Counted from the stretch's first letter, positions 4,569 through 16,677 are shown. The stretch: DNA of 64,000 nucleotides from an uncultured Actinomycetes bacterium (GCA_963733905.1 CAVTEU010000003.1:910-64909); one strand, 5' to 3'. Made by a program: numbers and translations. Notes: generated from the letters alone by a model not told the origin.

Positions 4569-7500
4569 TCAGGAAGCCGGCTCTTCGGCGGGGCAGGTCT
4601 CCGGGTCGAGGTAGCGGCGGCACTCATCGGGGGTGAGCTCGCGGGTGACCCGGTCTCTCAGCCAACTCGATGAGCCGTTCAGGGTCGAGATAGAACTTGC
4701 GGAGCAACGGCCCGTCGGCGTAGAGGGCATAGCTCCCATCGGGCGACAGGGTCACTTGAGGCTGGCCGCCGACGGGCCTGAACTCGACGATGAGTTCGTC
4801 GGTGTCGATGTCCCAGAGCCGCACCAGCGAGTCGAAACCGGAGGTGGCCAAGATGCCATCGCTGGTGATCGCGGGGTCGGGAGCAGGTGCCGGTGTGCGC
4901 TAACTGATTGAACACGATGGCGTCGACCGGCGCTGGCCCCGGCGACCACTCGGCGAAGTCGAGCACCCAGACAAAGCCGTCGAGCGTGCCGCCGGCGAGG
5001 AACCTGCCTTGAGGGTCGAACGAAGGACCGAACTGGGCGGTGATGCCCATGTCGCCGGTATTCAGGGTGGCGATTTTCTCCCCTTTCTCCAAGTCATAGA
5101 TGTTCACCGGGCCACAACATCTTCGGTGACAGCCAGGTACCGTCCGGCTGGAAACTCCCCGCCCGGGTTGAACGCCCCGGCAGACGTCTGATCTCGCCCA
5201 GGTCGAGCACTTCACGGCCAGAATCGACCTCGACGACCCGGCTTCTCAACTCGGCTCCGGGCGGAGGATCCTCGTTGCACACTCCGATGCCGTTGAGCAG
5301 GACGAGCGAGCTGTCGGGACTGAATGCCTTGACGCTGGTGCACGGGGGAAGCTCGGTCAGCACTTCGAGCTGCGGTGAAGCCAGATCCCGAATCGTGGCC
5401 CGCGCCGCTGCCTCGCTGCCGCGCAATGACCCGAGATACCGCCAGTCAGGACTGACGACTGGACCGAAGGGAAACACTGGATGTCGGTGAGTGAAGCGAG
5501 GGTCTCGCCAGTGTCTATGTCGAGCAACTCGAAGCCGTCGGGTTCACGTGTGGTCACCGCCACTTGTGACCCGTCGGGTGATATCCGCGGACCATTGGAG
5601 CGCCGGTGCGGGTTGCGAGCGCTTCCCATTCCGGCGGGCCGTCGGCGCTGACGTCCCAGACCCGCAGTCACCCCGTCGTACGACACGTTCGCCAGCCGCT
5701 CTCCGCCGGGCATGAAGGCGAGGTCGAAGGTCGACGCCCCGCTCCCGGGGAGTTCCATCACGATTTCGCCCGTCTCCGAATCGACCAGCGTGACGACTCC
5801 CTGGTTCCCCGAAAAGGCGAGATGCTGCCCGTCGGGGCTCCAGTCCAAGGCGGTCGTTTCGGTCAGGTAGGTCTCATCCAACACCAGGTGGCGGGTTTCC
5901 AGATCCCACACCTGCAGTCGCCTGGGATTCTGGGCACCCAGAGCCAGTCGCTCACCCGAGGGGTCGAGCGCCATGTCGTTCGGCTGGAAACCGAAGCCGT
6001 CAAGCGACCCGACTTCGGCGCCGTCCGCAGTCGAATAGAACCCGACCCGCTCGCGCCGGGCTCGTAAACGGCCATCGTCTCACCGCCGGGCAGGAAAGCG
6101 ATCTCGCCGGCTCCGCCTTCCGGCTCGATCGTGAACAGCTCCTTCCCCGAGCGCACCTCCCACACGGTCACCCCGTGCCGTCGTCGGTCTTGCGGCATTA
6201 GCTCGCCGTCTGGACTGAAGGTCGGATGGCGTATGAGCCCCGGAGGGACCCGGAATCCGGGACACCACGTCGCCGGTCGCCGGATCAAAGAGGATGACGG
6301 CGGGATGGTCCCCGGTCGGCGACGTCGTAGCCGACTTCGTCCAATGATCCGCGGAGGTGCCGTAGCTGACCGCCACCAAACTCCCGTCGGGCTGGCCGCC
6401 AATCCCGGTATCCCGGCTCCCGGTCCGGGCCAGCGTCGCCAGTTTCGACCCCTGAAGCATCCCAAACGACTGCATCGGGGCCGTCAGTCAACGCCGTTGG
6501 TGGCGATCCACACGCCGTCGGGGCTGACCGCCAAGAGTCCAGCCGCCCTCGAGCCGCATCTCGAGCCGGGAGGTCTGAACCGCTCGGTGCAGGGCGCCAT
6601 CGCTTCGGGGAGCACCGGCTCTCCGACTGACCGTGTGACTTCGGCGGCTTCGAGGCCGAGCAGGATGGCCAACTCGGGGTCCTCTTCGAGGGCGAGGATC
6701 GACTCGCCGGCAAGCTCCCGGCCGGTGGCCTCCCTCGCCTCGCGGTCGGCGCGGGCGGTCTCCTCCTCGGCGCGGGCCGCTTCCTCCTCGGCGCGGGCCT
6801 GCTTCCTGCTCGGCGCGGGCTTGTTCTTGGGTGGCCCTGTCCGCTTCGTCGGCGGCCCGCTGCTGGTTGGTGAAGGCGACCCCGGCGGCGGCGAGGGAGA
6901 CCAGGGCGGCGGCCCCGAACCCGGCGAGGATGCCCTGGCGGCGGCGGCGGCGTTTGCTCCGTTGCTCGTCGTCGGCGATGCGGCTGGTCTCGATGAGGTC
7001 GCGTTCGTCGCCGCTGAGGGCGAGGTCGGGAGGCGGCGAGGGTCTCGAACTGTTCGAGACGTCCCCCGCCGAGCAGATAGCTGGGCTCTTTGCCCGACCC
7101 TTCCCACTCGGTGGCGGCTTCGGCGAGGCGGCGGTGCAACAGCAGGTCCTCGCGGCGCTCGTCGATCCAGCCCCGCAGCCGGTCCCAGTGGGTGAGCAGC
7201 GCCTCGTGGGCCACCTCGACGGTGGGGGCGCGGGTGCTGGGATGGCGGTCGAAGGTGAGCAGCCGGTGCTCGCCGTAGCGGTCCAACACCTGGTCGACCG
7301 CGGCGGTTTCGATGGGGAGACCCCGCAGCTCACGGCGGGCCACCCGGCGCCGGGTGTCCTGGGCGGTCTCGTCGACGGTGACCAACCGGAGGAACACCTG
7401 GCGGGCCGCCTCCTGCCCGGCGTGGTCCAGCCGCTGGTAGATGTCGTCGGCCCGCCGCCCCAGCGCCCCCACCACCCCACCGGAGCGCAGGTAGTCGGCT

Positions 7501-16500: not shown

Positions 16501-16677
16501 CGCCTCGGCAATGAGCACGGCGAGCACGGTGCGTGGTCTCGGACCCCCAAGACGGACCGTCTCATCCCCCATAGAGGCCCGGATCGGGCCTAGGACCGCG
16601 AAGTCCACCGCGGAACCGTACTCCAGTGCGGTACCGGCCTGCCGGCCCGAATCCTGCTCCCAGTCCAAGGGCTCCAT
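10505..16677 (-). CDS. giant multidomain signalling protein, copy 2 (same architecture; the more intact paralog, a few apparent frameshifts)
   Basis: 16069..16677 SARP N-terminus (MEPLDWEQ...AVLGPIRASMGDETVRLGGPRPRTVLAVLIAEAG). 12815..16249 is a 1144-aa ORF carrying BTAD, cyclase, kinase, STAND, then a hydrophobic segment ILAGFGAAALISLAAAGVAF and coiled-coil EQEAGRAEQEAARAEEE. 10505..12908 holds WD40 repeats in several frames. Confidence 0.75.

Follow-up and report, generated by a model that had tools for sequence, protein, structure and literature searches.

Tandem genes for probable single-pass SARP-cyclase-kinase-nSTAND1-WD40 receptors with a converted core in an uncultured Actinomycetes bacterium

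Introduction

SARP regulators, Hanks-type kinases, class III nucleotidyl cyclases and STAND ATPases are the main parts of actinobacterial signalling, and they have usually been studied separately, e.g. in the case of AfsK acting on AfsR. The active sites of class III cyclases arise at the interface of a dimer, and SARPs bind to direct repeats in tandem and recruit RNA polymerase. PknD is a receptor kinase with an external beta-propeller, and ToxR and CadC have a cytoplasmic N-terminal OmpR-type winged helix, a single transmembrane helix and an external sensor, so that transcription is controlled from the membrane. Here we analyse a locus at which all four actinobacterial parts appear to be fused on one chain, and that twice in a row. 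It is located at positions 4569-16677 of a stretch of 64,000 nucleotides (nt) from an uncultured Actinomycetes bacterium (GCA_963733905.1, CAVTEU010000003.1:910-64909); this whole stretch is called the window throughout. An initial annotation had described the interval as a tandem pair of very long genes, each encoding a DNA-binding N-terminus, a cyclase, a kinase, a STAND NTPase, a hydrophobic segment and a WD40 propeller, with a homogenised core and diverged ends.

ATP binding and Ser/Thr phosphorylation both regulate AfsR (PMC10936776). The published SARP classes are small, medium, large and SARP-LAL, and the receptor architecture described below is not among them (PMC10972967). Periplasmic WD40 domains in kinases with a single membrane span are documented (PMC11032199); a text match to “BTAD” in that paper, on planctomycetes, is no domain but a journal identifier. 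For fungal NLRs with WD40 domains, recombination-driven sensor evolution is reported (PMC12222747). The complete architecture was not described in the literature searched, which included papers on nSTAND1, on conflict systems and on SARP classification (PMC8195603, PMC10907252, PMC7159879, PMC10972967) as well as a STAND phylogeny of 2026.

The explanation that we favour, with a confidence slightly above even, is that the locus contains two real, adjacent paralogous genes, each encoding one chain of ~1,950 residues. Taken as a whole, it reads the locus as a tandem pair of single-pass receptors, whose reading frames were fragmented by assembly error and whose core was overwritten by gene conversion.

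Results

Two gene copies with the same domain order

The two copies are arranged head to tail on the minus strand, have a length of ~5.9 kb each, and are situated in sequence with a G+C content of 65-73%. Copy 1, the downstream gene (4569-10469), starts with an ATG at 10469 and ends with a TGA at 4569 (C-terminus ...ETCPAEEPAS*). Copy 2, the upstream gene (10505-16677), starts with an ATG at 16677, taken straight from the sequence; its conserved C-terminus, ETCP, ends at 10742, and the frame is open to 10505. The outer coordinates given in the initial annotation were exact, 4569 being the stop of copy 1 and 16677 the ATG of copy 2. The C-terminus of copy 1 is extended by six codons, up to the TGA at 4569. 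In copy 2, three extra bases are present within 10690-10745, where relatives carry ...TGC CCC TAG, and translation in the same frame would continue for ~78 codons, up to 10505. Neither copy forms one uninterrupted open reading frame (ORF). The stop-free segments hop among all three frames, as does the plot of third-position G+C content (GC3), and the longest unbroken pieces comprise 1,144-1,189 amino acids (aa) for copy 2 and 929-940 aa for copy 1. The database entry for the locus is a 1,144-aa fragment (P0001). Scans for promoters and terminators gave no match in the spacer that separates the copies.

To characterise the homologues, a protein search was performed with the 1,189-aa piece of copy 2, which yielded thousands of matches, and the best 120 were examined. 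Among these, 107 are intact, have a length of at least 1,800 aa and are aligned end to end; the lengths of the intact homologues are mostly 1,850-2,000 aa (>100 proteins). In two independent metagenomes, the syntenic orthologue P0002 is encoded by one uninterrupted ORF of 1,962 aa. Together with the 107 full-length homologues, it shows that the proposed architecture on a single polypeptide is real. The search for orthologues with the complete architecture, which the initial annotation had suggested, was therefore successful, and the combination can no longer be called unusual: it is that of a large family in soil Actinomycetota, automatically annotated and apparently not studied, of which the databases already hold hundreds of members under automatic names.

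Pfam searches were run on the raw stop-to-stop pieces of both copies and on a frameshift-corrected copy 1. The order of the domains is the same in both copies, i.e. Trans_reg_C, BTAD, Guanylate_cyc, Pkinase, nSTAND1 and WD40-type propellers, in agreement with the order proposed earlier. In the corrected copy 1 they span the residues 48-102, 119-263, 275-434, 471-667, 736-1128 and ~1300-1930, respectively. All sequence motifs that had been quoted before were located in both copies, i.e. FLMTDIVDST, AGDGVCAAF, VAVK, HRDVKPAN, DFG, APE, NPYKGLQAFQESDAADFYGR, GPSGIGKSS and LLLVIDQFEE. All features of the two copies given below are encoded on the minus strand.

The OmpR-type winged helix of copy 1 (Trans_reg_C, 10162-10326; 40-43 bits, cut-off 26.2) lies outside the conversion tract described below, and that of copy 2 (16381-16545) has 69% aa identity to it. 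The latter is nearer to a second homologue, P0003 (73%), than to P0002 (63%). Between the recognition helices of copy 1 (STLQTYMSSLRAVLG) and copy 2 (STLQTHVSNLRAQLG), four positions differ. The BTAD domain follows directly, at 9678-10113 in copy 1 (150 bits, cut-off 22.1) and at 15896-16331 in copy 2, so that the N-termini have the arrangement that defines a SARP, an OmpR-type winged helix and directly thereafter a BTAD.

The class III cyclase is encoded at 9165-9644 in copy 1 (PF00211, 31.4 bits, cut-off 21.9) and at 15383-15862 in copy 2. A phmmer comparison of this domain with the PDB retrieved GRESAG4.1 (1fx2, E=1.2e-19), Ma1120 (E=2e-15) and LipJ (E=7.5e-12). Both copies contain D286 and D329, the metal-binding Asp residues, as well as N386 and R390, the transition-state Asn and Arg. 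In the 107 homologues, each of the two Asp residues is present in 104, and the Asn and the Arg are present in all 107. The Lys that specifies the purine is found in 102 of the 107, and its partner Asp is present. The Hanks-type Ser/Thr kinase domains are located at 8291-9055 (161 bits) and 14511-15274, respectively. The Pkinase match covers only the model positions 1-197 of 263. Both copies retain the G-loop, the VAVK Lys, the alpha-C Glu, HRD, DFG and APE, and so does the family as a whole.

The NTPase domain of copy 1 (7077-8260) matches nSTAND1 over nearly the complete model (PF20703, 400.7 bits, positions 1-378 of 379). The equivalent in copy 2 is located at 13295-14480 and scores 385 bits in the native ORF; a compensated frameshift of 24 codons lies between 14521 and 14447. 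The Walker A motif GPSGIGKSS and the Walker B motif LLLVIDQFEE are conserved in at least 90% of the 107 homologues. The previous label STAND/NB-ARC is correct with respect to the STAND NTPase, and at 401 bits nSTAND1 is a better label than NB-ARC. A sequence search of nSTAND1 against the PDB gave no match below E=0.009. An AlphaFold2 (AF2) model of the 1,189-aa cytoplasmic ORF has a predicted TM-score (pTM) of only 0.38, so that the arrangement of the domains is unreliable; within the nSTAND1 region the local confidence (pLDDT) is ~70-90, and the pattern of secondary structure is compatible with nucleotide-binding, helical and winged-helix tiers.

Transmembrane helix, stalk and propeller

Downstream of the NTPase, copy 1 encodes a predicted transmembrane helix, GILAGFGAAALVSLAAAGVAF (6866-6928), which is preceded by SKRRRRRQ; its equivalent in copy 2 is at 13082-13144. 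The mean Kyte-Doolittle value over 19 residues is 2.08 for the helix in the window, compared to a minimum of 2.07 and a median of 2.41 in the family, and a single strongly hydrophobic segment after the NTPase is present in 107 of 107 homologues. On average, the 15 residues upstream of the helix include 7.0 Lys or Arg, and the 15 downstream of it 3.8. The number of cysteines after the helix is even in 106 of the 107 homologues (values from 2 to 12), and before the helix in only 45; a C-terminal Cys pair is conserved in 96-106 of the 107. Paired cysteines suggest disulfides, and hence an extracytoplasmic location. The parity of the distal cysteines and the positive-inside charge bias make it probable that the propeller is outside the cell, i.e. 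that the proteins are single-pass receptors with the N-terminus inside and the C-terminus outside. The initial annotation had seated the propeller as an input on the STAND scaffold; the same two features probably place it on the other side of the membrane.

The helix is followed by a stalk, in which a 21-nt tandem repeat found with Tandem Repeats Finder (TRF) encodes Glu/Ala/Arg heptads. It has 3.5 units in copy 1 (6746-6820) and 4.4 units in copy 2 (12945-13036). An AF2 model of the part of P0002 that follows the NTPase (pLDDT 85, pTM 0.79) contains the hydrophobic helix, a continuous Glu/Ala/Arg helix of 63 residues, and then an all-beta region. In a Foldseek search, the all-beta model retrieved tandem double propellers, among them 2ymu (E=2.4e-32) and Apaf-1 (E~1e-28, TM-score 0.47-0.48). 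The WD40 profile PF00400 scored 44 bits (cut-off 27). The tandem WD40 double propeller and the C-terminal helices with the Cys pair are encoded at 4590-6571 in copy 1, outside the conversion tract and with 17 of the frameshifts of this copy. In copy 2 the double propeller and C-terminal helices are at 10742-12764, with an aa identity of 73.6% to copy 1 and ~28 frameshifts.

Gene conversion of the core

An identity profile of copy 1 versus copy 2 revealed that the central 3.43 kb are 97.5% identical on the nt level and 97.9% on the aa level. For the 5′ end the values are 68.8% and 69.4%, and for the 2.1 kb at the 3′ end 79.0% and 73.6%, respectively. The homogenised core and the diverged ends had thus been recognised correctly in the initial annotation, and its values of 98-99% for the core and about 75% aa identity for the N-terminus were somewhat too high.

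A four-way DNA alignment was generated from copy 1, copy 2, P0002 and P0003. The tree topology shifts along the gene. P0002 is the closest sequence to copy 1 at both ends (0.83-0.93), where copy 2 stands apart (0.61-0.88). In the middle, the identity between the copies rises to 0.95-0.99, and both are equally distant from P0002. The breakpoints are sharp and, by maximum likelihood (ML), correspond to residues ~115 and ~1262 of P0002, i.e. the tract begins where BTAD begins and closes with the Glu/Ala/Arg stalk. It covers 6685-10120 in copy 1, the probable donor, and, judged by the ML breakpoints, identity and synonymous divergence (dS), 12880-16338 in copy 2, the probable recipient. Inside the tract, 371 informative sites unite the two copies, 39 unite copy 1 with P0002 and 39 copy 2 with P0002; outside, the respective numbers are 169, 375 and 100. 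The gain in log-likelihood of the tract model is 187.

In the tract the copies differ by a dS of 0.092, compared to 0.85 for the winged helix and 0.60 for the WD40 part. With the topology switch, the sharp breakpoints and this drop of dS from 0.60-0.85 to 0.09, the gene conversion of the core that had been suspected earlier is borne out, and a 3.4 kb conversion tract between paralogues, from BTAD to the stalk, is supported by the alignment. Compared to P0002, the dS of copy 1 is 0.30-0.41 throughout, with 0.30-0.32 at its orthologous ends; that of the core is 0.40-0.41 for both copies, and that of the ends of copy 2 is 0.68-1.0. Because both cores are as far from P0002 as the ends of copy 1 are, the direction was most likely from copy 1 to copy 2. 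A replacement of the ends of copy 2 from an outside allele would leave the same pattern. In this history, copy 1 would be the ancestral gene at the locus and copy 2 an older paralogue, of which the 3.4 kb from BTAD to the stalk would have been overwritten by copy 1 after the split from the nearest known relative.

The bounds of the tract are the junction of winged helix and BTAD on one side and the junction of stalk and propeller on the other, so that the two proteins differ only in the modules for reading DNA and for reading a ligand. A diversification of input and output specificities, as had been proposed, is not evident from the rates: the ratio of nonsynonymous to synonymous divergence (dN/dS) between the copies is 0.26 for the winged helix and 0.28-0.39 for the WD40 part, which indicates that selection on the gene ends is purifying or relaxed, not positive. 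Family-wide, the winged helix has a pairwise identity of ~75% and is as conserved as the core, compared to 44% for the propeller; the propeller alone is fast-evolving. The tandem pair and its conversion tract are a clear but ordinary evolutionary event.

Frameshifts in the two copies and in neighbouring genes

The frameshifts were mapped with a custom frameshift-tolerant protein-to-DNA aligner and with P0002, the closest intact homologue, as the guide. In three simulations of indel-free divergence to 74% aa identity, the aligner called 0 false frameshifts. Copy 1 has 87.1% aa identity to P0002 over 1,947 residues, ~24 frameshifts and no in-frame stop, and copy 2 has 82.6% aa identity, ~33 frameshifts and one in-frame stop, at 12453. 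One further call in copy 2, at 16646, was an alignment artefact.

Conserved genes in the neighbourhood are frameshifted as well when compared to their orthologues on a related contig (L081, see below), i.e. the polyprenyl synthase gene twice (96% aa identity), a VWA/phosphatase gene five times and a DEAD helicase gene once, which indicates that the whole window stems from an indel-prone assembly. The flanking genes with frameshifts are at 18452-19490 and 23257-24872 (a further position is 20870), and the shifts in the polyprenyl synthase gene are at 18674 and 19047. The genes for ClpC, a major facilitator superfamily (MFS) transporter and an acyltransferase in the window have no frameshifts relative to their orthologues. 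Other long-read-style contigs with family members (L084, L009) are also fragmented, and the family member of a cultured Ilumatobacter isolate (see below) is intact.

The 111 codon differences between the two cores are distributed as 25/12/74 over the codon positions 1/2/3, and dN/dS is 0.16; the bias for third positions and the low ratio suggest selection on the reading frame up to the present. Indels with extra bases outnumber those with missing bases (41 versus 17) and are not tied to homopolymers; such an excess of extra bases without a link to homopolymers resembles read error. Because flanking genes are also shifted, nonsense codons are nearly absent, the core is under purifying selection and similar contigs are broken in the same way, most of the ~57 frameshifts are likelier to be errors in the consensus of a noisy metagenome assembly, probably from long reads, than signs of decay. 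In practice, this is a warning that long, recombining multi-domain genes are split into many false ORFs in noisy assemblies.

Synteny of the locus

The nearest relatives of the locus are found on two JGI metagenome contigs, L081 and L082, which share 87-95% identity with the window in the flanks. On both, the polyprenyl synthase gene is followed by a single receptor gene (P0002), a small ORF and clpC. Relative to them, the window contains an extra block of 7.9 kb (10543-18451), which comprises a VCPO/PAP2-like gene, copy 2 and a spacer of ~200 nt. By blastn, the block falls into a 17-nt gap in the L081 intergenic region between the polyprenyl synthase gene and the receptor gene: position 6570 of L081 corresponds to 18452 of the window and position 6588 to 10542, and the rest is collinear. 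Because the window is collinear with L081 and L082 apart from these 7.9 kb, copy 1 is the orthologue of P0002.

The VCPO/PAP2-like (vanadium-chloroperoxidase) gene, identified by its Pfam matches, is located at 16855-18352 on the minus strand, directly upstream of copy 2, and is split over two frames. Its orthologues on soil metagenome contigs (79-87% aa identity) have another neighbourhood, without a receptor gene nearby. In a metagenome scan of 64 VCPO loci, the order VCPO, copy 2, copy 1 was not found on an independent contig, which neither supports nor contradicts the tandem.

Distribution and mosaicism of the family

The source labels of the homologues include Thermoleophilia, Gaiellaceae, Actinomycetota and Micromonospora sp. 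MS34. A scan of genome contigs yielded 80 relatives, the best of which is 65% identical, and added Acidimicrobiia, including Ilumatobacter nonamiensis. The cultured isolate I. nonamiensis YM16-303 (L073, 9596-14929) has an intact 1,777-aa ORF with SARP, kinase, nSTAND1 and WD40 domains and no cyclase, and this protein would be a usable entry point for experiments. Loci of Chloroflexota can be aligned only from the kinase onward. These loci and the Ilumatobacter protein without a cyclase suggest that the N-terminal modules seem to have been gained stepwise in the family. None of the family members that were inspected is adjoined by a conserved partner gene.

One of the fragmented relatives, L084 (ENA ERZ25039547, contig_75802), aligns with its positions 125-3674 to 13055-16607 and to 6839-10354 of the window, with a core that is 94% identical to both copies. 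The WD40 part of L084 could not be aligned to the copies in the window by blastn, and the gene is present in six ORFs. Judged from this case, cores are apparently shared and sensors swapped between lineages. Over residues ~366-466, P0002 is less similar to copy 1 (0.71) than P0003, which is otherwise more distant, is to copy 1 (0.78), which suggests a separate recombination patch in this relative. Mosaicism looks general in the family.

Further genes of the window

The clpC gene (1783-4464) is intact and 99.3% identical to its orthologue on L082. Lysyl-tRNA synthetase is encoded at 30268-31734 and FtsH at 61526-63592. Because of these three genes, the locus appears to be in a housekeeping region of the chromosome, and no island is obvious. 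A cluster of the partner-switching type is located at 37063-39016 on the minus strand; it consists of a STAS anti-sigma antagonist, a HATPase_c_2 anti-sigma kinase and a truncated piece with a GAF domain. It is followed, at 39480-54800 on the same strand, by a tandem array of ~12 diverged paralogues with 60-85% nt identity and a spacing of 1.14-1.23 kb. The products of the array are polytopic membrane proteins of ~380 aa, and several units look frameshifted. Their C-terminal motif is ...LRYRLYDIDR.I.RTVTY...LAVAGATLAAAALF.PVRRRVQ.WVDRRFDR.RYD...RLRDEVDLDGL, and the sole Pfam match is a weak one to HisKA_7TM.

Discussion

In the explanation that we favour, the cytoplasmic part of each protein would comprise, from the N-terminus on, the SARP module, the class III cyclase, the Hanks kinase and the nSTAND1 NTPase. 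One transmembrane helix would follow, and outside the cell the rigid Glu/Ala/Arg helical stalk would carry the disulfide-containing tandem WD40 double propeller. Binding of a ligand to the outer propeller would cluster the receptors, and the clustering would be relayed through the membrane to nucleotide exchange and oligomerisation of nSTAND1. Proximity would then switch on three outputs, each of them working as pairs or arrays, i.e. the cyclase, the active sites of which would be formed only in the dimer, the kinase, by trans-autophosphorylation, and the membrane-tethered SARP modules, which would be placed side by side on direct repeats and recruit RNA polymerase. The net effect would be that of the Streptomyces AfsK-AfsR pair plus a cyclase, fused into a ToxR-like transmembrane one-component regulator. 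With the propeller outside and the NTPase inside, the canonical autoinhibition by a sensor resting on the nucleotide-binding oligomerisation domain (NOD) cannot apply. That the family represents an undescribed class of transmembrane STAND receptor, with an outer Apaf-1-like propeller, three outputs fired by clustering and a shared core kept by conversion, is a tentative proposal, to which we assign somewhat less than even confidence.

Several points weigh against this explanation. The evidence for the topology consists of sequence statistics, and not of a dedicated predictor or an experiment, and the activation step across the membrane is a conjecture, because a sensor on the far side cannot autoinhibit the NTPase as it does in known STANDs. 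In the cyclase, the purine-specifying Lys is an Asn in copy 1, copy 2 and P0002 (and a Thr in P0003). The copies in the window retain the partner Asp and thus lack the Lys...Asp pair that is the signature of adenylyl cyclases, and the substrate and the activity of the cyclase in this lineage are uncertain. Of the second-messenger output put forward in the initial annotation, the cyclase motifs stand, but with this Asn the output itself is less secure than for most other family members. With respect to the tandem, the closest relatives have a single receptor copy at the locus, and a second family member is present within 10 kb in only 2 of 83 related loci (L006 and L018). As both of these pairs are convergent, tandem duplication is not a trait of the family, and the direct tandem arrangement is found in this window only. 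Copy 2 lacks the stop codon that its relatives have after the conserved C-terminus ...DPETCP. Lastly, assembly error and real frameshifts can be separated only indirectly, as they were judged from the assembled sequence, and the indels are unevenly spread: the WD40 parts contain 8-13 per kb, the core and the flanking genes 1.1-1.5 per kb. Counted as frameshifts, those in the WD40 parts (4590-6570 and 10742-12765 of the window) are 6-10 times as dense as those in the core and in the genes at the flanks. As to the cause of the dense WD40 indels, a mixture of strains in a hypervariable region is a guess. A diversity-generating retroelement (DGR) or another source of hypermutation was also considered for these indels and dropped, since DGRs yield substitutions, in C-lectin or Ig folds, and not indels; the window was not searched for a reverse transcriptase.

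In another reading, which we regard as unlikely, both copies are pseudogenes in decay: the frameshifts would be genuine mutations, and no full-length protein would be made from the locus. Such decay would explain the 24-33 frameshifts per copy and their concentration in the WD40 parts (8-13 versus ~1.1 per kb in the flanks), the in-frame stop of copy 2 and the loss of its normal stop codon, and the ratio of indels to lineage-specific substitutions in the converted core, ~1:9, is not unlike that of neutral decay. However, frameshifts of the same kind are present in conserved neighbours, such as the polyprenyl synthase gene with its 96% aa identity, and the substitutions that arose in the core after the conversion favour third positions, with a dN/dS of 0.16. 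Only 0-1 nonsense codons are present per copy, although dozens of neutral substitutions would be expected beside that many indels, and the surplus of extra-base over missing-base indels (41 versus 17), independent of homopolymers, resembles read error. The error-prone contig could also be taken as a sign that the pair or its near-identical core is itself an assembly artefact, i.e. a false tandem of strain variants or a consensus homogenised by cross-mapping. The uniqueness of the tandem to this window, and the difficulty that repeats of 3.4 kb with 97.5% identity pose for assemblers, point in the same direction. A false duplication is nevertheless very unlikely, because collinearity resumes exactly, the VCPO-like gene is unique and the ends of the two genes diverged long ago. 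The dS of 0.6-0.85 at both ends and the greater proximity of the copy 2 winged helix to P0003 mark the copies as different genes, the 86 core differences follow coding selection and not noise, the VCPO-like gene is found alongside copy 2, and the insertion of 7.9 kb into a 17-nt gap of a collinear intergenic region is unlike a chimeric join.

The two remaining alternatives accept the proteins and differ in where they operate and what for. The resemblance of the propeller pair to that of Apaf-1 (TM-score 0.47-0.48) would fit a soluble, Apaf-1-like protein, in which the helix does not span the membrane and the double propeller autoinhibits the NTPase in the cytoplasm. All characterised STANDs hold the sensor and the NTPase in one compartment (background in PMC10936776), and the helix is rich in Ala and Gly. 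Yet the hydrophobic segment is present in 107 of 107 homologues with Kyte-Doolittle values of at least 2.07 and an Arg cluster before it, even Cys counts in 106 of 107 are limited to the distal part and accompanied by conserved Cys pairs, and a charged helix of 63 residues separates the propeller from the rest of the protein. We therefore regard a soluble protein as improbable. The second alternative concerns the role, i.e. an NLR-like immune or conflict sensor, whose variable propeller would read an invader or non-self and whose kinase, cyclase and SARP would arrest growth or induce defence. The nSTAND1 clade was established from predicted counter-invader systems (PMC8195603) and has been found as a DGR-diversified sensor scaffold (PMC10907252); in conflict systems of this kind, kinase and cyclic nucleotide (cNMP) cyclase domains recur as effectors (PMC7159879). 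The propeller evolves faster than the other parts (44% versus 75% pairwise identity) and cannot be aligned between relatives with cores that are 94% identical, and mosaic recombination is frequent in the family. But PADLOC matched generic kinase models only (PD-T4-6, mad6) and none of its defence STAND models (Avs, bNACHT and others), a death-type effector is absent, and the neighbours are housekeeping genes (for ClpC, polyprenyl synthase, lysyl-tRNA synthetase and FtsH), with no defence genes or conserved partner genes seen. Moreover, an extracellular sensor would not meet intracellular phage proteins, and the dN/dS of the propeller is below 1. We regard an immune or conflict role as unlikely, but as a real alternative.

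A single-chain fusion that is abundant in uncultured soil Actinomycetota would offer a direct test of the coupling of a STAND NTPase to phosphorylation, a second messenger and transcription. If the propeller is truly extracellular, STAND/NLR signalling would be extended to transmembrane receptors and to a membrane-tethered SARP. The tandem pair is a natural experiment, with a signalling core that is 98% identical and differences in the DNA-reading helix and the sensor, and can help to map specificity.

Comparison with known systems

Like the proteins in the window, AfsR of S. coelicolor has an N-terminal OmpR-type winged helix with BTAD, to which a STAND NTPase and a sensor made of repeats are joined. 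Against the AfsR model, P0002 scores 198 bits, far below the equivalog cut-off of 1,430, and only its SARP part is aligned, over residues 23-276; among the NCBIfam models no equivalog scored above its cut-off. In contrast to the receptors, AfsR is soluble, has an NB-ARC-type NOD and TPRs, and contains neither a cyclase nor a kinase domain; unlike in the AfsK-AfsR pair, the kinase is here within the same chain. The nSTAND1 clade (PF20703; Kaur, Iyer, Burroughs, Aravind 2021) is matched over its full length with 401 bits and with conserved Walker A and B motifs. The nSTAND1 proteins described so far differ in that they have death-like adaptor, peptidase or TIR effectors and FGE or C-lectin sensors, and belong to predicted conflict systems (PMC8195603, PMC10907252); the literature searched mentions no nSTAND1 protein that begins with SARP, cyclase and kinase and in which a transmembrane segment precedes the sensor.

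Fusions of a class III cyclase to a large ATPase regulator are also found in the mycobacterial Rv0386-type proteins (cyclase-STAND-HTH) and in the TOMM kinase/cyclase fusion TIGR03903, which adds a kinase. The TIGR03903 model matches the kinase part with 130 bits, below its cut-off of 706. Rv0386 is likewise without the canonical Lys-Asp specificity pair. These proteins differ in the order of the domains, have a C-terminal LuxR-type HTH or none and TPR sensors, and lack a transmembrane helix and a SARP. Receptor Ser/Thr kinases, i.e. PknD of M. tuberculosis and planctomycete proteins of the kinase-TM-WD40 type, resemble the receptors in the cytoplasmic Hanks kinase, the single transmembrane helix and the external propeller, and the PknD model of NCBIfam matches the kinase domain with 92 bits. 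They have no STAND NTPase, DNA-binding module or cyclase, and their propellers are of another type and single instead of tandem.

With ToxR and CadC, the receptors share the winged helix inside, one transmembrane helix and an outer sensor. ToxR and CadC have only ~300-500 aa and no enzymatic or NTPase modules, so that beyond the winged helix the likeness is one of analogy and not of homology. Apaf-1 and the fungal NLRs of the HET-E/NWD type combine, like the receptors, a STAND NTPase with tandem WD40 propellers. Unlike the receptors, they are cytosolic, the sensor packs on the NTPase, the effectors are CARD or HET domains, and no membrane lies between the modules. The parts of the receptors all belong to known families, and their combination is an uncharacterised family, not a new category; what is new here is the transmembrane topology, which is probable on the basis of the Cys parity and the charge bias.

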